DNA of 64,000 nucleotides. Source: Lingula anatina (taxonomy: Eukaryota; Animalia; Brachiopoda). The translations under genes and the position numbers were made by a program. The DNA is taken from assembly GCA_051362555.1 (NCBI GenBank), contig CM120647.1:8928001-8992000 (forward strand). The letters are read 5' to 3'. Positions 1 to 31,880 of the stretch are shown here, piece by piece; within the stretch, counting starts at the first letter, position 1, and every line of letters starts with the position of its first letter. A model generated the notes under the pieces. It searched no databases. It was not told where the DNA came from and saw only the letters and a program-made list of their open reading frames with translations.

Positions 1-365
1 GGGGGTAGTAGCTCCGAGTATTCTAGACCAGTGACAACGCCACGTCTGTCGCACTGGGTCTGATGAAAATCTGAAATTTGGCCGATAGGAAGTCAAAATA
101 TTTTGCGCGAGTGACTTTTTTCAAGTTTGCGACAAATTAAAAGAGCTTTTGGATTCTTAAATGTCTGGACTAAGAGTTTCATTGAATAAGTTGTAAATAG
201 AAAACAAATGTCTACAAAGTTTCATGACAAGAACAAAAGTGCTGTCATTTGCTACCAGTAATACCTGGATTGCTCCATTTTAATCCTTTTCGTCTAAAAG
301 TAAAGACTAACTTAAAATACTTTTTTTCAAGGGACCCAGTGATCTGAATGAGTAGCAATGAGTAC

Positions 366-520
366 CTGTGCCATGTTGACTGAGGAGTAAGACTTCATGT
401 CATCTTCTGTGCTGTTCCAAGGCAAACCCAGCACTGTCAGGTCGCTGTACTTCTTGCTGTCCAGCCGCTTTGTTTTCACGTTGCGATTTTTCAGGGTCTC
501 ATCTCCTTTTCCTTTGTTCT
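366..520 (-). pseudogene. TARDBP: TDP-43 exon-3-like fragment (bipartite NLS + N-terminal part of RRM1), copy 1
   Basis: ENKGKGDETLKNRNVKTKRLDSKKYSDLTVLGLPWNSTEDDMKSYSSVNMAQ aligns with human [55 protein letters not shown]. Phase-1 acceptor (ttttag|AG) and phase-0 donor (CAG|gtactc) match the human exon 3 boundaries. The FGE core is deleted. Confidence 0.88.
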
Positions 521-975
521 CTAAAACGGTAACACATTCCAATTATTATTAAGAATGTTAATTGAATTATCAACACTTTGTTGTATCAATATTTCTATTA
601 TTTCCTGTGTAATCAATGACTGCGACATACTAATTATTGTTCGGACAAGTAGATTTTTCAGAATGTATGAATGTATGAATGAATGTATGAATGTATAGTG
701 TTAAGACCATACGATTTTTTCGAAGTTTTCAAAACAGCTTTTGATTTGATTTAGTTTATTATCTTATATCGTAATTCTAAAAATGCCAAGGTCTTAAAAT
801 TTTTAATTTATATTCAAATACAATACAATCCAAATTCATTAAAATTTGTATTCGGACCAGTGAATGCTGATTTAGACCAAAAGATTTTAGGAAAGTTTAG
901 GTCCAATAGCCAGTAAGGCGAAAAGCTTATGGCAAATCATTTAGGTCTATTTCTCACCCCAATAACACGGGTTAC

Positions 976-3790
976 CTTCAAGGGTTTTCCATCTCAGTGA
1001 AACACCACATGGCTTGGACGCTTCCCCGATGCAGCCACCTCGTAGACAAACCATTGCAGGACTCGCTGGACGCTTTTCCGATGCAGCCACCTCGAAGACA
1101 GACCATGGCAGGACTCGCTGGACGCTTCCCCGATGCAGACACTTCGTAGACAGAACATGGCAGGACTCGCTGGACGCTTCCCTGATGCAGCCACCTCGTA
1201 GACAGACCTTGGCAGGACTCGCTGGATGCTTCCCCGATGCAGCCACCTCGTAGACAGACCATGGCAGGACTCGCTGGACGCTTCCCCATTGCAGCCACCT
1301 CATAGACAGGACGTGGCAGGACTCGCTGGCACCAAGGATTGATGGAAGTAGCTGAAGTGTAGATGTGGCTCTCTTTTCCTTGCAGTTGTCAGTGGTAGCT
1401 CTAGTGAGAATCGCCATAATCGAGTTCTGTTAACAGAAATAAAAAATTGGATTAATGACTTTTCATCATATTTCAGTACTCTGCATTCAGGCTTACCCTT
1501 AAGAGTTTATGTTAACAGAAATAAAAACGGATTAATTTCTTTCCTACATATGTCAGCACTCTAGAGTCAGGCTTACCCTTAAGGGTTTTCCATCTCGGTG
1601 AAACAACATATTCCTGGGACGCTTCCCCAATGGAACCACCTCGTAGACAGACCATGGCAGGACTTGCTGGCACTAAGGGTTGATCTAAATGTAGATGTGG
1701 CCCTCTTTTCCTTGCAGTTGTCAATGGGAGCTTTATCGATAATAGCCATAATCTAGTTCTGTTAACAGAAAGAAAAAACGGATTATTGATTTTTCCAACA
1801 TATTTCTTTTAACAGAAAAAAAATGGATTAATGACTTTTCTAGATATGTCAGCACTCTGCAGTCAGGCTTACACTTAAGGGTTTTCTGTTAACAGAAATA
1901 AAAACGGATTAATGACTTTTCCTACCTATGTTAGCACTCTGCAGTCAGGCTTACCTATATGGGTTTTCCATCTCTGTGAAACACCATATGCCTGGGATGC
2001 TTCTCCATTGCAGCCACCTCGTAGACAGACCTTGGCAGGACTCGCTGGACGCTTCCCCGATGCAGCCACCTCGTAGACAGACCATGGCAGGACTTGCTGG
2101 ACGCTTCCCTATTGCAGCCACCTCATAGACAGGACGTGGCAGGACTCGCTGGCACCAAGGGTTGATGGACGTAGCTGAAGTGTAGATGTGGCCCTCTTCT
2201 CCTTGCACTTGTCAGTGGGAGCTCTATCGAAACAGAAAGAAAAAAGAATTAATGACTTTTTCTACCTATGTGTACGCTCTGCAGTCAGGCTTACCTTTAA
2301 AGGTTTTCCATCTCAGGGAAACACCACATGCCGTCGACGCTTCCTCATTGCAACCATCTTGTAGACAGACCATTGCAGGACTAGCTGGACGCTTCCCCGA
2401 TGCAGCCACCTCATTGACAGACCATGGCAGGACTCGCTGGACGCTTCCCCGATGCAGCCACCTCGTAGACAGGACGTGGCAGGACTCGCTGGCACCAAGG
2501 GTTGATGGACGTAGCTGAAGTGTAGATGTGGGTCTCCTTTCCTTGCAGTTGTCAGTGGTCAGTGGTAGCTCTAGTGAGAATCGCCATAATCGAGTTCTGT
2601 TAACAGAAAAAAAAACGGATTATGACTTTTCCTACATATTTCTGTTAACAGAAAGTAAAAAATTAATTAATGACTTTTCCTACATATGTCAGCACTCTTA
2701 AGGGTTTTCTGTTTACAGGAATAAAAACGGATTAGTGACTTTCTTTACCCATGTTAGTACTCTGCAGTCAGTCTTACCTCTGAGGGTTTTCCATCTCAGT
2801 GAATCACCATATGTCTGGAACGCTTTCCCATTATTGTCACCTCGTAGACAGACCATGGCAGGTCACTTTGGCACCAAGGATTACTGTATGTAGATGTGCC
2901 CCTCTTCTCCTTGTAGTTGTCAATGGGCGTTTTACCGAGAATCACCACATTCGAGTTCTGTTAACAGAAAGAAGAAACAGATTAATGACGTTTCCTACAC
3001 ATGTCTGTTAACAGAAATAAAAGCGGATTAATGACTTTTTCTACCCATGTTAGCACTCTGCAGTCAGGCTTACCTTTAAGGGTTTTCCATCTCATTGAAA
3101 CACGATATGCCTGGGACTCTTCCCCAATGGAGCCACCTCGTAGACACAAATCATGGCAGGACTCGCTGGCACTTAGGATTGATCGAAGTAGCTGAATTGT
3201 AGATGTGACCCATTTCTCCTTGTAGTTGTCAGTGGGAGCTCTATCGAGAATCACCTTTATCGAGTTCTGTTAACAGAAAGAAAAACGGCTTAATGACTTT
3301 TCATACAATGTACATATGTCACTACTCTGCACGGATTAATAACTTTTTCTACATATTTCTGTTAACAGTAATAAAAAATGGATTAATGAATTTTCCTCTA
3401 TATGTCAGCATTTTGCATTCAGGCTTACCTTTAAAGGTTTTCTGTTAACAGAAAAAAAAATAACGACTTTTCCTATCTATGTCAGCACTCTGCAGTCAGT
3501 CTTACCTTAATGGGTTTTCCATCTCAGTGAAACACCATATGCCTTGGACGCTTCCCCATTGCAGCCATCTTGTAGACAGACCATGGCAGGACTCGCTGGA
3601 CGCTTCCCTAATGCAGCCACCTCGTAGAGACGGACCTGGCAGGACTCGCTGGCACCAAGGATTGACCGACGTGTAGATGTGGCCCTCTTCTCCTTGCAGT
3701 TGTCAGTGGGAGCTCTATCGAGAATCGCCATAATGGACTTCCGGTAAAAGAAAGAAATACGGATTAATGACTTTGCCTACCTATGTCAGC
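976..3790 (-). repeat. Compound tandem array, copy 1: ~7 exon-like modules, 52-bp internal repeats, ~69-nt intron-like spacers
   Basis: 52-bp unit ggcaggactcgctggacgcttccccgatgcagccacctcgtagacagaccat (e.g. period 1056 to 1108). Recurrent minus-strand donor G|GTAAGC and acceptor TTTTTATTTCTGTTAACAG|. Confidence 0.95.
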
Positions 3791-4117
3791 ACTCTGCTTC
3801 CTGGACCTGGAATAGAAGAAACCTGGAATGCATGGAAATAAATGCAATGACACTACAAAAATAAAGCCCACAACAGCAGAAAGCCGATGACGTATCCTGC
3901 GAAGATTCCTGAGCAACGATTCCTCGTGGAGAGAAGCGAAGGTTTTAGCTGGCCAGCTTAGAGAAACGTCGAATCCACCGTCCAGACGACTCCTGTGAGC
4001 GATGCGTTGACTTGGGATGAGGAAAAGATTCGGAGAAACGTGAGTCCTGTGTCCTTATTGCTTGATACGGGGCGCAGTACATGGCATCCTTCTTGTTGCT
4101 CCAGATCTGTCTGCGTT

Positions 4118-4177
4118 GAATGAACGAAATTTCAAAATTTCGCGCTTTTATACCTTTAGTTGGTATATAGTCACATG
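4118..4177 (-). promoter_or_regulatory. Pol II core promoter (TATAAAA at -31, Inr TCATTC, upstream E-box CATGTGAC), copy 1
   Basis: Minus-strand TATAAAA at 4152-4146 and TCATTC at 4123-4118 with +1 A at 4121, exactly 31 nt from the TATA start. The same spacing holds in all three copies. Confidence 0.72.
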
Positions 4178-5740
4178 GTGGCGTTCCTGGTCAACTTGTT
4201 CATAGGGGGTGGTGTTTGATAGTGATGCGCAAAATTGATGATAATATCTTATTGACATATACATTTTATTTACTATTTTTTATTTTGATTATTCTGTTTA
4301 TCATTTTATTTTAAGATAAGAGTAATAAGTACTAAGCAGTGACTTCGAAATGTACAGGCATATTTGATGACAATTTCTGAGCAACATACCTTCTCCCCAA
4401 AATTATAATGGCCACGATGTCCGTTAAACCGGTACAGGTAGCCGTGAACTTCTCGCAGGCCACTATAGTACGTGCGTATACAAACACTGATCCAAAATGT
4501 GGGTAATGTAATAGGGCGTAGGGTGACTGCATTTTCGAGGCAGCCTGAGGGAGCATGATTGTTTTGATTGCAGTGAATTGTAGTGAGTCAATTGAAAATA
4601 CACTGGACTTCGTGCCTACAGCCACCTCAGTACTCCGTAACACATTTTGTTATCAACTGAGTTTTTATTCTGAGAAATGAAAAACAAGTTATTGTGATTT
4701 TAAGAAACGAAAGAAAGCAGCACTAGGTCAAATGAAAAAAAATCTTTATTTATATATACTAGGCAGTAGAAACAAATGAATATTTTTTGCATATAAAAGG
4801 TCTACTGGTATAGGTAATAATTATAAGCGGGCACCTCTCTTCATGGCTTTGGGTTATCAATACTCTGATGCCAGTAGCATGAGTGGAGAAAAAAAACAAA
4901 AATAAAAATAAATAAGACATTAAGATAAAAATTAAAATTAAATATTTCTGATTTATGATCCCCTTAATACTCAATTGAAAACTGCACTAATACACATTTT
5001 AATATTGTTTTAAATCTGAGTGGTCACTGGCATCCTTTCACATCTCCCTGACGGCCACACAACCTAAGTTGTCGAACACTGAGCTTACATGTTAATAAGT
5101 CAATTGCTTACTATCAATGTTTTTATGGCCAGGCACACAACAGCTCCATTTGTGTGTGTGTGTGTGTGTTTTTTTTTTCAGTGAGGTTGTCTTTGACTCG
5201 ACCCAGCTTGAAAATCGGACTCGAGCCTTGCTTCGCCTGCCACGAGTACACTCACTGTTTCTCCTTATATAGATCCGTTTGATATTTTTAAAAAATCGTT
5301 AAGAATTATCGAGAAAAAAGTTTGTTCAAGTGAAAAGATGTACTGCGATACTCGAGCGTTCATTTTCATAGATATCCCATATAAATAAATAAGTAATAAA
5401 AGTACCTCTGCAATTACAGTAATAAGAGATAACAGACAGTTATAGCTGTTTATATTTTACAGGGTTTGTTGAGAAATTGAGGAAATGTTAACAATGGAGA
5501 GTATTAATGTTATGGATATTGGACATGAGGAGTGCATGTCAATTACCCGGAGTTTCTGAGACAACGAGAAACTTTTCTTTCTGTAAGTTTAAGTAACACT
5601 CCGAGAATCGCAGGTCAGTCAAAACCCTACCATTATCAGGATGCCTGTGCGGTTTTTAACTTTTTTCCCATACTTTCCCAAATTTCGACGTTAACTGGAC
5701 ATGTAGCCATTATTCCAGTCTGAGGACCTCACTGTGGCTG

Positions 5741-11801: not shown

Positions 11802-14117
11802 ACGCCCGGATACTTCAGTCTTTATAACATAATATTGGCACAACGCCTTACAGTTCATAAATATCGTCCCGTTTTAAACAGCATGGTGCAACTGAATGAA
11901 CTTGTTCTCGTGACTACAAACTATGCTCTATATACAGTACAATGGTTGACAAGCTGAAGCACAAGAATTTACCAAAGTGCATGTAATTCTACAGAAAGAG
12001 GTATTGAAAACCAATACACATTCACTGGAGTCTTAACACAATTAAACCGAGACTAATTTTAACTTTATCTAGGGGGTGAAGTCATAAATAAAGTGACTCA
12101 ACCCTTTTACAACTGAGAGCATCCACCAAAACTTGAATATAGTCATTTCTAATAATGATAATAAATATAATACGATTATTACCCAGACATAAACTTGACT
12201 TTGACAAATAACTGGTTTTAAAATAAGTTTCTCAAATGTAATTTTGCCCTGAAATCGCAACTACATGACAGTACCTGCATGATACATATGATAAAGATTA
12301 AAGCAAGCTTGCTTTGGAATATTTCAGGTCTCACATTACACTTTATGGCCGTCCATGTAAATTTCAATATGAATTTTTTGATCCGGAGAAAAGGGTGCAT
12401 ATGTGATGAATTGGATTTATTTGTCAACTATAACCCTTGAGAAAATCATAATATTAGTGATATTAGTAATGTGCACTCCCCTATCTTGAGAGATGCCTGA
12501 ACGCTTCCAGCCATCCCTCATGAGGAGCAGACTGTACAAAAAATATAATGAAATATTTTCTCAAACGTAAAATATTTCATTATAGATTTTGCACAACCTA
12601 TCAATGTAAAATCTCTTCATGTAAAAGCATTTACATGAAGTCGGATTTTACAAAGATGTGAGGGTTAGTTGAGGTTAGTGTGCGGATTATGATCTTCTCA
12701 AACGCTATACTGACGAACAACTCCACATCATCAACAGCACATATTTGAAAAATGACTACATCACTAAGATTGAAATAAAACACAGACGACCATAAGTGGT
12801 GGTGATACCAAAGTTTGAGCGAAAACCCATCTGCATTTAGAATGTGGATAAAGCAACTGGATATTCAATATTAAATTTTAAAACAATTATTATAATCACT
12901 GTAGAAGCAGACTTAAAATTTTCATACAGAACCACAATTCATCTTATTCAATTGATTATTCATGGAATTATAAATGAGCATCCTGAACTTCAGATTTCTC
13001 TTAAGCTATTGACAAAAGACGTTTCACTGTCATAAGTGAAAAAAACTCACTAAATGCAATTGCACTCGACTCATCTGTGACCCATGAACAGCAAAAATTC
13101 TCAATATCCAAAAGACTTGAGTGCATTATTAGGTTGTACCAGTATTCCTCTTACATTCAGTATATCGCTCTTCATTACCATTCCACATTCTCTAATTTTT
13201 TGCAGACAAGCTGTGTCCTTAAAACGAAGACTGCTAGGATGTCCGGTCATCAATGAAAGTGGCTACAGGGGCTCATTGCTAGCGACATATAGTGTTGCAC
13301 TTTTAGGCGAGGATTGGTTTCTGCGTTCGGTCATTATTTCTGGAAAACTGCCCTTTCGTAGCCTACAAATGAAACGTAATGTAAAGTATGAAAAGAAATT
13401 AAAAGCTTCCAGTAATTACAACAAAGATCAGTTTTTACACACCGTTAATACTCGTACTAGTATTTTAATATTTCATAATGCTATGGTTCTGAATATGACT
13501 ACTTTTTATTTTATTTTATTTTAAATTGCTTTTTTTTATTTTACTTCTATAACACAACACAAGAAAATTGCATTATGATTAAAGAAAGTGCGAAGATTCT
13601 TCAATAAAAAAAGTGACTGGAGAATAAGAGCTACAAAGGAGGGCATATGAATCACGAAAACGCCTAAGGATCTAAACAATATAAACAAGTGAAAATACAT
13701 GCTCACCTATACGATGGCCTCTTGGTACCACAACCGCAGCACTTAGGGTGAGGTTGGGAGTTGTAGCTCCGAGTATTCTAGACCAGTGACAACGCCACAT
13801 GTGTTGCACTGGGTCTGATGAAAATCTGAAATTTGGCCGATAGGAAGTCAAAATATTTTGCGCGAGTGATTTTTTTCAAGTTTGTGACAAATTAAAAGAG
13901 CTTTTGGATTCTTAAATGTCTGGACTAAGAATTTCCTTGAATAAGTTGTAAATAGAAAACAAATGTCTACAAAGTTTTATGACAAGAACAAAAGTGCTGT
14001 CATTTGCTACTAGTAATACCTGGATTGCTCCATTTTAATCCTTTTCGTCTAAAAGTAAAGACTAACTTAAAATACTTTTCAAGGGACCCAGTGATCTGAA
14101 TGAGTAGCAATGAGTAC

Positions 14118-14707: not shown

Positions 14708-16290
14708 CTTTAAGGGTTTTCCATCTCAGTGAACGACACATGGCTTCTCCGATGCAGCCACCTCGAAGACAGACCATGGCAGGACTTGCTGAACGCTTCC
14801 CCGATGCAGACACCTCGTAGACAGACCTTGGCAGGACTCGCTGGACGCTTCCCCGATGCAGCCACCTCGTAGACAGACCATGGCAGGACTTGCTGGCACT
14901 AAGGGTTGATCTAAATGTAGATGTGGCCCTCTTTTCCTTGCAGTTGTCAATGGGAACTTTATCGATAATAGCCATAATCTAGTTCTGTTAACAGAAAGAA
15001 AAAAACGGATTATTGATTTTTCCAACATATGTCTTTTAAACAGAAAAAATGGATTAATGACTTTTCTAGATATGTCAGCACTCTGCAGTCAGGCTTACAC
15101 TTAAGGGTATTCTGTTAACAGAAATAAAAACGGATTAATGACTTTTCCTACCTTTGTTAGCACTCTGCAGTCAGGCTTACCTATATGGGTTTTCCATCTC
15201 TGTGAAACACCATATGCCTGGGATGCTTCTCCATTGCAGCCACCTCGTAGACAGACCATGGCAGGACTCGCTGGACGCTTCCCCATTGCAGCCACCTCAT
15301 AGACAGGACGTGGCAGGACTCGCTGACACAAAGGGTTGATGGACGTAGCTGAAGTGTAGATGTGGCCCTCTTCTCCTTGCACTTGTCAGTGGGAGCTCTA
15401 TCGAAACAGAAAGAAAATAGAATTAATGACTTTTTCTACCTATGTGAACACTCTGCAGTCAGGCTTACCTTTAAAGGTTTTCCATCTGAGGGAAACACCA
15501 CATGCCTTGGACGCTTCCTCATTGCAACCATCTTGTAGACGGACCATGACAGGACTCGCTGGACGCTTTCCCCAATGCAGCCATCTCGTAGACAGACCAT
15601 GGCAGGACTCGCTGGACGCTTCCTCATTGCAGCCACCTCATAGACAGGACGTGGCAGGACTCGCTGCCACCATGGATTGATGAACGTAGCTGAAGTGTAG
15701 ATGTGGGTCTCTTCTCCTTGCAGTTGTCAGTGGTAGCTCTAGAGAGAATCGCCATAATCGAGTTCTGTTAACCATCTCGTAGACAGACCAAGGCAGGACT
15801 CGCTGGACACTTCCCCGATGCAGCCACCTCGTTGACACACCATGGCAGGACTCGCTGGACGCTTCCTCATTGCAGCCACCTTATAGACAGGACGTGGCAG
15901 GACTCGCTGTCACCATGGATTGATGAACGTAGCTGAAGTGTAGATGTGGGTCTCTTCTCCTTGCAGTTGCCAGTGGTAGCTCTAGCGAGAATCGCCATAA
16001 TCGAGTTCTGTTAACAGAAAGTAAAAAATTAATTAATGACTTTTCCTACATATGTCAGCACTCTGCACTCAGGCTTACCTTTAAGGGTTTTCTCGCTGGA
16101 CGCTTCCCTAATGCAGCCACCTCGCTGAGACGGACCTGGCAGGACTCGCTGGCACCAAGGATTGACCGACGTGTAGATGTGGCCCTCTTCTCCTTGCAGT
16201 TGTCAGTGGGAGCTCTATCGAGAATCGACATAATGGACTTCTGGTAAAAGAAAGAAAAACGGATTAATAACTTTGCCTACCTATGTCAGC
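14708..16290 (-). repeat. Compound tandem array, copy 2 (~1.6 kb, ~5 modules, some fused by deletion)
   Basis: Same 52-bp unit and exon/intron modules as 976-3790. Confidence 0.95.
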
Positions 16291-16617
16291 ACTCTGCTTC
16301 CTGGACCTGTAATAGAAGAAACCTGGAATGCATGGAAATAAATGCAATGACACTACAAAAATAAAGCCCACAACAGCAGAAAGCCGATGACGTATCCTGC
16401 GAAGATTCCTGAGCGACGATTCCTCGTGGAGAGATGCGAAGGTTTTAGCTGGCCAGCTTAGAGAAATGTCGAATCCACCGTCCAGACGACTCCGATGAGC
16501 GATGCGTCGACTTGGGATGAGGAATAGATTCGGAGAAACGCGAGTCCTGTGTCCTTATTGCTTGATACGGGGCGCAGTAAATGGCATCCTTCTTGTTGCT
16601 CCTGATCTGTCTGCGTA

Positions 16618-16677
16618 GAATGAACGAAATTTCGAAATTCTGCGCTTTTATACCTTTAGTTGGTATATAGTCACATG
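16618..16677 (-). promoter_or_regulatory. TATA+Inr core promoter, copy 2
   Basis: ggTATAAAAgcgcagaatttcgaaatttcgtTCATTC on the minus strand, 31-nt spacing. Confidence 0.72.
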
Positions 16678-27878: not shown

Positions 27879-30800
27879 CTTTAAAGGTTTTCCATCTCAG
27901 TGAAACACCATATGCCTTGGACGCTTTCCCGATGCAGCCACCTCGTAGACAAACCATGGCAGGACTCGCTGGACGCTTCTCCGATGCAGCCACCTTGAAG
28001 ACAGACCATGGCAGGACTCGCTGGACGCTTCCCCGATGCAGCCACCTCATAGACAGACCATGACAGGACTCGCTGGACGCTTCCCCGATGCAGCCACCTC
28101 GTAGACAGACCATGGCAGGACTCGCTGGACGCTTCCCCGATGCAGCCACATCGTAGACAGACCATGGCAGGACTCGCTGGCACTAAGAATTGATGGAAGT
28201 AGCTGAAGTGTAGATGTGGCCCTCTTTTCCTTGCACTTGTCAGTGGGAGCTCTATCGAAACAAAAAGAAAAAAAGAATTAATGACTTTTTCTACATATGT
28301 GAACACTCTGCAGTCAGGCTTACCTTTAAAGGTTTTCCATCTCAGGGAAACACCACATGCCGTCGACGCTTCCTCATTGCAACCATTTTGTACACAGACC
28401 ATGGCAGGACTCGCTGGACGCTTCCCCAATGCAGCCATCTCGTAGACAGACCATGGCAGGACCCGCTGGACACTTCTCCAATGCAGGCACCTCGTAGACA
28501 GACCATGGCAGGACTCGCTGGACACTTCCCCATTGCAGCCGCCTCGAAGAAAACTAGCAGGAATCGCTGGACACTTCCCCAGTGCAGCCACCTCATAGAC
28601 AGACCATGGCAGGACTCGCTGGATGCTTCCACGATGCAGACACCTCGTAGACAGACCATGGCAGGACTGGCTGAACGCTTCCCCATTGCAAACACCTTGT
28701 AGAAAGACCATGGCAAGACTCACTAGACGCTTCCATCATGCAGTCACCTCGTATACAGACCATGGCAGGACTCGCTGGCACTAAGGATTGATGGAAGTAG
28801 CTGAAGTGTAGATGTGGCTCTCTTTTCCTTGCAGTTTTCAGTGGGAGCTCCACCGAGAATCGCCATAATCGAGTTCTGTTAACAGAAAGAAATACAGATT
28901 AATGACTTTTCCTACATTTATCTGTTAACAGAAATAAAAAAATGGATTAATGACTTTTCATACATATGTCAGCACTCTGCATTCAGGCTTACCCTTAAGG
29001 GTTTATGTTTAAAATAAAAACGGATTAATGACTTTTCCTACATATGAAGATACAGTCAGGCTTACCCTTAAGGGTTTTCCATCTCGGTGAAACAACATAA
29101 TCCTGGGACGCTTCCCCAATGGAACCACCTCGTAGACAGACCATGGCAGGACTTGCTGGCACTAAGGGTTGATCGAAATGTAGATGTGGCCCTTTTTTTC
29201 CTTGCAGTTGTCAATGGGAGCTTTATCGATAATAGCCATAATCTAGTTCTGTTAACAGTAAGAAAAAAAAACGGATTAATGATTTTTCCAACATATGTCT
29301 TTTAACAGAAAAAAATGGATTAATGACTTTTCTACATATGTCAGCACTCTGCAGTCAGGCTTACACTTAAGGGTTTTCTGTTAACAGAAATAAAAACGGA
29401 TTAATGACTTTTCCTACCTATGTTAGCACTCTGCAGTCAGGCTTACCTATATGGGTTTTCCATCTCCGTGAAACACCATATGCCTGGGATGCTTCCCCAT
29501 TGCAGCCACCCCATAGACAGACCTAGGCAGGACTCCCTGGACGCTTCCTCAATGGAGCCACCTCGTAGAAGGACAATGGCAGGACTCACTGGACGCTTCG
29601 CTAATGCAGCCACCTCGTAGACAGACCATGGCAGGACTCGCTGGACGCTTCCCCATTGCAGCCACCTCATAAACAGGACGTGGCAGGACTCGCTGTCACT
29701 AAGGATTGATGGACGTAGCTGAAGTGTAGATGTGGCCCTCTTCTCCTTGCACTTGTCAGTGGGAGCTCTATCGAAACAGAAAGAAAAAAGAATTAATGAC
29801 TTTTTCTACCTATGTGAACACTGCAGTCAGGCTTACCTTTAAAGGTTTTCCATCTCACCAAAACACCACATGCCTTGGACGCTTCCTCATTGCAACCATC
29901 TTGTAGACGGACCATGGCAGGATTCGCTGGATATTTCCCCAATGCAGCCATCTCGTAGACAGACCAAGGCAGGACGCGCTGGACACTTCCCTGATGCAGC
30001 CACCTCGTAGACAGACCATGGCAGGACTCGCTGGCACCAAGGATTGTTCTTTATTTGATGTGCCCCTCTTCTCCTTGTAGTTGTCAGTGGGTGCTTTATC
30101 GAGAATCACCACAACCGAGTTCTGTTAACAGAAAGAAAAAAAAAACAGATTAGTGACGTTTCCTATACATGTCTGTTAACAGAAATAAAAATGGATTAAT
30201 GACTTTTTCTACATATGTCAGTAATCAGCACTCAGGCTTACCCTTAGGGGTTTTTTTTCTGTTAACAGAAATAAAAACGGATTAATGACTTTCTTTACCC
30301 ATGTTAGTACTCTGCAGTCAGGCTTACCTCTAAGGGTTTTCCATCTCAGTGAAACACTATATCCCCAATGGAGCCACTTCGTAGACAGACAATGGCCACA
30401 TTCGCTGGACGCTTCCCCACTGCAGCTACCTCATAGACAGACCATGGCAAGACTTGCTGGATGCTTCCCTGATGCAGACACCTCATAGACAGACCATGGC
30501 AGGACTCGCTGGACGCTTCCCCAATGACGCCACATCGTAGACAGACCATGGACTCGCTGGCACTAAGGATTGATCGAAGCAGCTGAATTGTAGATGTTGC
30601 CCCTTTCTCCTTGCAGTTGTCAGTGGCAATGTATCGAGAATCACCATAATCGAGTTCTGTTAACAGAAAGAAAAACGGGTTAATAACTTTTTTACATATT
30701 TCTGTTAACATATATAAAAAATGGATTAATGACTTTTCCTCTATATGTCAGCATTTTGCATTCAGGCTTACCTTTAAAGGTTTTCTGTTAGCAGATAAAA

Positions 30801-31490
30801 AATTAATGACGTTTCCTACCTATGTCAGCACTCTGCAGTCAGTCCTACCTTAATGGGTTTTCCATCTCAGTGAAACACCATATGCCTTGGACGCTTCCAC
30901 ATTGCAGCCATCTTGTAGACAGACCATGGCAGGACTCGCTGGCACTTAGGATTGAACGAAGTAGCTGAATTGTAGATGTGGCCCATTTCTCCTTGTAGTT
31001 GTCAGTGGGAGCTCTATCGAGAATCACCTTAATCGAGTTCTGTTAACAGAAAGAAAAACGGCTTAATGACTTCTCATACAATGTACATTGTACATATGTC
31101 ACTACTCTGCACGGATTAATAACTTTTTCTACATATTTCTGTTAACAGAAATAAAAAAGGGATTAATGACTTTTCCTTTCTATGCCAGCACTCGGCAGTC
31201 AGGCTTACCTTTAGGGGTCTTCCATATCACTGAAACACCATATGTCTTGGACGCTTCCTCATTGCAGCAATCTTGTAGACAGACCATGGCAGGACTCGCT
31301 GGACGCTTCCCTAATGCAGCCACCTCGCAGAGACGGACCTGGCAGGACTCGCTGGCACCAAGGATTGATCGACGTGTAGATGTGGCCCTCTTCTCCTTGC
31401 AGTTGTCAGTGGGAGCACTATCGAGAATCGACATAATGGACTTCTGGTAAAAGAAAGAAAAACGGATTAATAACTTTGCCTACCTATGTC
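27879..31490 (-). repeat. Compound tandem array, copy 3 (~3.6 kb, ~8 modules)
   Basis: Same modules as the other arrays, with longer 52-bp runs at 27915-28180 and 28400-28780. Confidence 0.95.
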
Positions 31491-31820
31491 AGCACTCTGG
31501 TTCCTGGACCTGGAATAGAAGAAACCTGGAATGCATGGAAATAAATGCAATGACACTACAAAAATAAAGCCCACAACAGCAGAAAGCCGATGACGTATCC
31601 TGCGAAGATTCCTGAGCGACGATTCCTCGTGGAGAGATGCGAAGGTTTTAGCTGGCCAGCTTAGAGAAACGTCGAATCCACCGTCCAGACGACTCCGATG
31701 AGCGATGCGTTGACTTGGGATGAGGAATAGATTCGGAGAAACGCGAGTCCTGTGTCCTTATTGCTTGATACGGGGCGCAGTAAATGGTATCCTTCTTGTT
31801 GCTCCAGATCTGTCTGCGTA

Positions 31821-31880
31821 GAATGAACGAAATTTCGAAATTCTGCGCTTTTATACCTTTAGTTGGTATATAGTCACATG
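31821..31880 (-). promoter_or_regulatory. TATA+Inr core promoter, copy 3
   Basis: TATAAAA at 31855-31849 and TCATTC with +1 at 31824. Confidence 0.72.

Follow-up and report, generated by a model that had tools for sequence, protein, structure and literature searches.

A satellite-like array in Lingula anatina as part of a transcribed, spliced and probably non-coding gene family

We analysed a 64,000-nt window of the Lingula anatina genome (assembly GCA_051362555.1, contig CM120647.1, positions 8,928,001 to 8,992,000) and found that a repeat which looks like a satellite represents an expressed and spliced gene family. Its RNA is transcribed from one strand into poly(A)-selected RNA, is spliced at several sites and uses an alternative donor. 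That the array belongs to a real family of spliced non-coding genes we regard as very likely; that its RNAs are, in addition, near-neutral, with the micro pieces as by-products, is a less secure claim, which we hold to be probable. The complete reading, which we favour on balance, places the array in the middle of a multi-copy, probably non-coding gene family that is transcribed from the minus strand, is likely driven by a TATA promoter and probably arose as one exon was duplicated in tandem several times over, together with its flanking intron ends, yielding near-neutral RNAs.

Anatomy of the three gene copies

Positions 1-33 kb of the window are a tandem triplication with a unit of ~13.7 kb, the units being 82-93% alike. 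Each unit contains the array once, on the minus strand, at 3.8-1.0 kb (copy A), 16.3-14.7 kb (copy B) and 31.5-27.9 kb (copy C). The order of parts per copy is a TATA box, a leader of ~247 nt, a 134-nt intron, the repeat exons, a 455-nt intron and a TDP-43 exon. There are seven repeat exons in copy A, four in copy B and eight in copy C. In a large exon, a unique stretch of 85-103 nt is combined with between one and seven 52-nt units and with an end shared by all, and the large modules measure 180-451 nt in copy A and 162-552 nt over all three copies.

All features of copy A lie on the minus strand. A putative TATA box, TATAAAAG (4145-4152), recurs at 16652 in copy B and at 31855 in copy C. It stands 31 nt upstream of an initiator-like TCATTC, and, the distance being the usual one, we take the two to be a TATA box and an initiator. 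Exon 1, a non-coding leader (3875-4121) with a presumed 5' end, reaches a read depth of up to 12-20x at 3862-3998. It is followed by intron 1 (3741-3874, 134 nt), whose 3' 53 nt match the spacers found further downstream. Repeat exons A1 (3506-3740, 235 nt), A3 (2778-2957, 180 nt) and A4 (2295-2596, 302 nt) were defined by parsing the sequence and by reads. A1 is separated from A2 (3074-3266, 193 nt) by a compound intron of 239 nt (3267-3505), which consists of a spacer, a micro piece, a further spacer and a half-spacer; another compound intron, of 181 nt and with GT-AG ends (2597-2777), separates A3 from A4. Exon A5 (1955-2223, 269 nt) has lost its original acceptor by deletion, and a candidate new AG lies at 2225-2224. 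The 196-nt compound intron behind it (1954-1759) leads to A6 (1577-1758, 182 nt), a close match to part of the RefSeq model P0002 that has almost no reads, and A7 (976-1426, 451 nt, six 52-nt units) shows the highest depth of all, 30-45x. The last array intron (521-975, 455 nt) ends at a degenerate, internally shortened TDP-43 (TARDBP) exon that covers the start of RRM1 (366-520; PDB TDP-43, E=7.4e-8). The start of a next predicted exon, recognised by homology to model P0005 and by its AG/GT ends, lies at 1-70.

Parsing the sequence in the same way places promoter, exon 1 and array at 14708-16652 in copy B and at 27879-31855 in copy C, with TDP-43 exons at 14272-14118 and 27422-27274, respectively. 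In copy B the next predicted exon is complete (13825-13707), the last exon begins at 13362 and the first AATAAA is found at 12421. A motif scan across the window and a Pfam search with 64 of the 68 minus-strand ORFs listed between copies A and B detected no other TDP-43 exon, and none of 28 candidates proved to be a longer relative of the relic. A functional TARDBP gene has an intact frame with an NTD and two RRMs; each copy here has a single shortened exon, which is frameshifted in copy C.

Between the large exons, the first-pass annotation had described 69-nt spacers, 13-nt micro-exons and half-spacers that create tandem acceptors, and this layout holds. Read on the minus strand, 1954-1886 is a 69-nt GTAAG...AG spacer, which forms the first part of the 196-nt compound intron; the 13-nt pieces at 1885-1873 and 3441-3429 each sit between an acceptor and a donor; and half-spacers give tandem acceptors at 3359/3267, 3005/2958, 2709/2642/2597 and 1806/1759. 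Full spacers are 64-71 nt long. A third micro piece, 1508-1497, measures 12 nt and lies behind a dead acceptor (AT), and the one at 2708 has lost its donor. Counted from the first donor to the last acceptor, the effective introns would be 116-239 nt long, plus one of 71 nt that would use the new AG. The branch-like motifs CTRAC and TTAAT are present as described; CTRAC, however, lies ~46 nt from the AG, and TTAAT, at about -24, is the likelier branch, given the usual branch spacing. The spacer does not form a hairpin (folding z +0.78); with this value, and with Rfam returning nothing for the arrays up to E=1, a mirtron or snoRNA host was rejected. Over positions 1-34000 Rfam returned one chance-level match, outside the arrays. 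A spliced-leader RNA was rejected on anatomy, the modules carrying acceptors and long exons.

A strong bias towards the minus strand had been expected of genuine splice modules, and it is found for donor-acceptor pairs, which number 12, 5 and 13 (copies A, B and C) on the minus strand versus 2, 0 and 0 on the plus strand. Shuffled sequences gave, on the minus strand, means of 1.3, 0.9 and 1.7 pairs and maxima of 7, 6 and 6, so the five pairs of copy B are not above its shuffle maximum. Minus-strand donors alone (14, 9 and 19) stay below their shuffle maxima of 18, 11 and 22, and acceptor-like sites are as numerous on the plus strand (13, 6 and 13) as on the minus strand (10, 5 and 14); only the pairing is therefore strand-specific. 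Since the copies share one ancestor, the single unit is the fair shuffle test, and 57 of 3000 single-unit shuffles had a strong pair on either strand. Compared with shuffles, pairs are thus enriched, whereas donor counts alone and acceptor-like sites are not, and the splice motifs taken alone are modest evidence.

Other genes accompany the array. Each whole unit carries an intact five-exon gene on the minus strand (10100-6670 and 23071-19109), with 211 codons, 13 cysteines and a start that, read by eye, resembles a signal peptide. All of its AG/GT ends are kept, though exons 2-4 differ by 7-9%. Pfam scans of its exon frames found no family above the cut-off, and the ESM Atlas gave no usable lead for its exon; the gene is a candidate for what drives the triplication. 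The TATA regions of this gene and of the array gene have 15 identical nucleotides in common (10171-10157 versus 4158-4144), with a local score of 35 that was reached by one of 300 shuffles. Weak similarity extends on to the start codon of the five-exon gene, where the array gene has AAG for ATG, and judged by this likeness a common origin of the two promoters is possible. Finally, a plus-strand gene at ~33960-61500 is apparently arranged head-to-head, starting ~2 kb from the TATA box of copy C; its Pfam match, CAP-ZIP_m (E=0.008), is below the cut-off, and we take it to be FAM21/WASHC2-like.

Transcription and splicing of the array

Reads from four of nine same-species runs were aligned to positions 300-4400 only, at 90% likeness, which yielded 229 (run X1), 21, 71 and 282 (run X2) aligned reads. 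Most reads of X1 (179 of 229) and X2 (224 of 282) are only 90-95% alike, which indicates that they come from paralogues or other haplotypes, and the read evidence speaks for the family more than for copy A. In these two stranded runs array reads have the orientation of true TDP-43 mRNA reads, with nearly all depth that way, showing that array RNA is minus-strand RNA. Mean depth in X1 and X2 is 8.3x and 11.2x over thirteen exon bins and 1.1x over four spacer bins; the exon-to-spacer ratios are 7.6x and 10.1x, or 4.4x and 2.8x when the intron-1 bin is included, and poorer mapping of the AT-rich spacers may be a partial cause of their low depth. None of the four runs has any depth in the bin 3314-3450, inside the compound intron of 239 nt. 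Expression is very uneven across runs: its depth is about that of TDP-43 in X1 and X2 but almost nil in X4.

Ten joints were listed, generally resting on 1-6 reads with 1-3 starts. The only clean GT-AG intron among them is 2777-2597, seen in six X1 reads with two starts that are nearly identical to copy A; it is removed whole, past the acceptors at 2709 and 2642. The joined forms that were tested, this one included, are absent from the window DNA. Four reads in X1 and one in X2 join the leader to A1 (3874/3740), and these five reads remove an intron 1 of 133 nt as listed, or of 134 nt by the GT-AG reading. The acceptor of intron 1 is GG in copy A and AG in copies B and C; at position 3742 every covering read (X1 9/9, X2 21/21) has the AG letter and none has copy A's own. 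Seven reads with 2-3 starts connect a module end to the TDP-43 exon (3515/504), a joint that is ambiguous in that the intervening letters can also be read as acceptor sequence. Moreover, seven X2 reads exit exactly at the main donor of A2 (3074) and continue into sequence that is absent from the window. Two of the ten joints are unexplained paralogue differences.

The remaining pattern is a set of five joints that go back, supported by 18 X2 reads (3-4 each), which all exit 37 nt short of the main donor and rejoin at the start of an exon. At the exit point GC comes next in 10 of 14 matched window modules and GT in none; the alternative donor is thus of the GC type, or else of the GT type in paralogues. 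Such joints do not show circles, because the modules are near-identical, the reads are mostly 90-95% alike and the libraries are poly(A)-selected. The first-pass annotation had inferred combinatorial exon skipping, circular RNAs or a spliceosome-loading scaffold. Circles and scaffold are unsupported. Variable splicing is borne out by the alternative donor and by 21 X2 reads that cross an acceptor unspliced or use an upstream one; the clean array joint, however, connects the first donor with the third and last acceptor. Unspliced transcripts across the array had been named as counter-evidence to splice competence, and those 21 reads are partly of this kind, yet the GT-AG joint 2777-2597 was found. 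The array is thus transcribed and spliced on the minus strand, but none of the ten listed joints, at low depth, includes a micro-exon or removes a lone 69-nt spacer; the piece at 3429-3441 accordingly occurs in none of them. Working splice sites, together with transcription and splicing of the minus strand, make the array a gene rather than a plain satellite. At the family level the RNAs would qualify as spliced lncRNAs: they come from one strand, exceed 200 nt, occur in poly(A)-selected RNA, contain a GT-AG joint and lack a protein-coding signature.

Three further observations concern the reads. Loose read ends at 3988-3991 and 3561 contain at least three leader variants and strongly diverged 52-nt units, which points to older expressed family members elsewhere in the genome. 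A minority of X2 reads lack one letter, each time at the equivalent position within the unit, at 1185 (3/40), 1237 (5/69) and 2060 (4/23); the resulting 51-nt units would keep a frame in that paralogue. At 520-522, TDP-43-like reads join the exon to two upstream sequences, one that looks like the expected coding exon (16, 9, 29 and 12 reads) and another (6, 3 and 5 reads), which is perhaps an alternative exon or a second paralogue.

Coding potential, relatives and origin

Array RNAs are likely non-coding, as judged by several features of their sequence. The 31 full 52-nt units contain 21 stop triplets versus 22.4 in simulations (P=0.41), that is, stops are not avoided. Variants are spread evenly over the codon positions (20/23/19), and there are indels of 1, 7, 9 and 11 nt. 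Exon phases are mixed, and the first ORFs have 10, 10 and 78 codons. The longest ORFs (213, 156 and 252 codons) start 1.2-2.0 kb into the transcript and are not the same in the three copies; with every combination of skipped exons considered, an ORF from one of the first three ATGs reaches 156-199 codons at best. Such long ORFs result from the stop-poor 52-nt unit. No Pfam family scored above the cut-off for the array frames. In micro-exon genes, the micro-exons lie within a coding gene and their length preserves the frame; the pieces found here are 13 nt long in a non-coding context.

With a 283-residue array ORF as query, four proteins were recovered, all of them 'uncharacterized' L. anatina RefSeq singletons (XP_013382232.1, XP_013398288.1, XP_013410457.1 and XP_013396589.1; lengths of 30-496 were searched) on four scaffolds. 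They are probably spurious ORFs of the array family. The corresponding RefSeq models, which are predictions, contain five module-to-module junctions, including places homologous to 1955/1758 and 1577/1426, and one module-to-TDP-43 junction; the micro piece is in none. Both micro-exons, the one at 1873-1885 included, are left out at the homologous places of predictions P0002 and P0003, and one stretch of P0002 is nearly identical to exon A6. Prediction P0005 connects a module, by way of the TDP-43 exon, to the two further exons located in copy B at 13825-13707 and from 13362. P0004 is one of the older family members. No description of the family was found in the literature searched, including under the four LOC identifiers; the available passages of the Lingula genome preprint (10.1101/2024.05.28.596352), whose supplements may list the repeat, do not contain the words 'lncRNA', 'non-coding' or 'tandem'.

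Sequence matches bear on how the array was built. The last 53 aligned nucleotides of the spacer match intron 1 with five mismatches, and its first seven match the start of the last array intron at six. The spacer is thus the hybrid intron expected if one exon was duplicated with breakpoints in the flanking introns. Since the micro pieces are identical to the last 13 nt of the large exon, they appear to be partial re-duplications of the spacer. We therefore propose that a first duplication, with breakpoints in the introns on either side of one exon, would have created the hybrid 69-nt spacer. Later unequal exchanges would have taken place at a short sequence that recurs near the end and near the start of the exon, copying either the spacer plus 13 nt or a half-spacer and leaving micro pieces and tandem acceptors within introns of 116-239 nt. 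The large exons would be those recognised by the spliceosome, with the micro pieces bypassed for the most part, producing RNAs of 2-3 kb with many early stops that carry the 52-nt repeats and the TDP-43 relic. These RNAs would be passengers of the segmental duplication, lacking a specialised function, while the neighbouring secreted-protein gene would be its conserved cargo.

CpG sites in the unit change ~3-fold faster than other sites (47 changes at 8 sites versus 77 at 44), which suggests germ-line methylation. The signs of constraint on splicing are weak. Last acceptors deviate in 1 of 12 cases and inner ones in 9 of 19 (Fisher p=0.046, for copies that are not independent and counting neither deleted acceptors nor those of the first-exon type), and the branch box does not follow this trend (last 7/12, inner 5/19). 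From exon 1 to module 1, copies A and C diverge by 2.8-3.6% versus 5.5-19.9% in the flanks; as intron 1 is just as alike (3.0%), gene conversion fits this equally well. The first acceptor of copy A and the donor of the TDP-43 exon in copy C have been lost, and copy B has two fused modules. The comparisons of acceptors, branch box and A-C divergence thus give no evidence for a function of the array RNA.

Weighing the readings and known systems

The near-neutral reading accounts for lost splice sites, an exon number that varies from 4 to 8, CpG decay and a neighbouring gene that is intact in both whole copies. A functional repeat-exon lncRNA, in which splicing would set how many unstructured 52-nt units are on offer to an RNA-binding protein, much as the FIRRE RRD binds hnRNPU, is doubtful. 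It could draw on units that fold worse than shuffles (z +1.7 for one, +3.1 for two), on a depth that rivals TDP-43 in two runs and nearly vanishes in X4, on older family members (P0004 and the diverged units in loose ends) and on the weak acceptor constraint. However, relatives were found only among L. anatina proteins, neighbouring copies differ in module number and in splice sites, and CpG sites in the units decay. Improbable, too, is the proposal of the first-pass annotation that 69-nt spacers and micro-exons form a combinatorial splicing code, give rise to circles or load spliceosomes. Many near-identical strong sites, the five joints that go back from the alternative donor to an exon start and the reads that cross acceptors unspliced would suit it, but neither a micro-exon nor a lone spacer is used in the listed joints, tandem near-identical modules produce such backward joints unaided, the libraries are poly(A)-selected and it is the inner acceptors that decay more.

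To a family of proteins with Cys-containing repeats that splicing would diversify, in the manner of SmPoMuc, we give very little credence: although four RefSeq proteins are annotated and the consensus unit has no stop in any frame, allowing ORFs of 156-252 codons, a 52-nt unit rotates the frames, stop avoidance and codon bias are absent, all four proteins are singletons with no Pfam family above the cut-off, and the copies have no start in common. Equally remote is a satellite or transposon-derived repeat with chance splice-like motifs and read-through RNA. Strong pairs do arise in single-unit shuffles (57/3000), the repeat is dispersed over at least four scaffolds and part of the RNA is unspliced; this reading is nevertheless largely refuted by the joints, and the GT-AG intron, the strand specificity, the leader and the downstream exons all speak against it, as does the lack of any Pfam family above the cut-off in the 64 minus-strand ORFs between copies. 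A bolder version, by analogy with FIRRE, is quite improbable: the array would belong to a family of architectural RNAs in brachiopods, in which alternative splicing across near-identical cassettes adjusts how many unstructured, protein-binding 52-nt units are present, the shared TDP-43 exon would feed back on TDP-43 splicing or level, and the whole would be an independently evolved multi-copy FIRRE-like system of a lophophorate.

On the favoured reading of a near-neutral, spliced non-coding family, the array is a natural test of splice-site choice, in which near-identical sites compete around 13-nt and 180-550-nt exons in one pre-mRNA, and it records step by step how exon duplication yields hybrid introns and micro-exons. 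Should the 52-nt units turn out to be functional, the array would be a rare lophophorate example of a repeat-exon lncRNA. The array is of a kind already known, and a function of its RNA is only putative. Chimeric transcribed pseudogenes in segmental duplications and tandem exon duplication are familiar for a captured housekeeping-gene exon, hybrid introns and copy-number variation. Beyond these, the Lingula locus has a non-coding cassette amplified in series, with 52-nt repeats nested in it and micro pieces left over.

Other known systems are compared here as far as the available parts of the sources describe them. SmPoMuc of Schistosoma is a protein-coding, lineage-specific multigene family with frequent recombination and several splice variants (PMC2576457); the Lingula family is likewise lineage-specific, recombining and spliced, but lacks a coding signature. 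The chicken LL2R repeat has a more than threefold excess of donors, is poorly spliced, contains few poly(A) signals and nucleates condensates (bioRxiv 10.64898/2026.03.19.712899). As in LL2R, a tandem repeat rich in splice sites is transcribed from one strand; unlike LL2R, copy A is roughly balanced, with 14 donors and 10 acceptors, and its RNA is spliced, if incompletely, and poly(A)-selected, so that the donor excess and failed splicing of an LL2R-type scaffold are not seen. In FIRRE, the RRD repeat occurs in 7 of 13 human exons and in 11 of 23 mouse exons, the number of repeat exons varies among isoforms, a single locus is common to human and mouse, and binding of the RRD to hnRNPU and nuclear retention have been tested (PMC4820808, PMC9074896). 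The Lingula array resembles FIRRE in layout without being a member: in both, a local repeat forms several exons of a multi-exon non-coding RNA, whereas in Lingula the short introns are repeated too, the RNA ends in a TDP-43 relic, and, in place of a single locus, there are three copies in the window and models on four scaffolds. We claim no homology between the two, and the likeness would be one of architecture.
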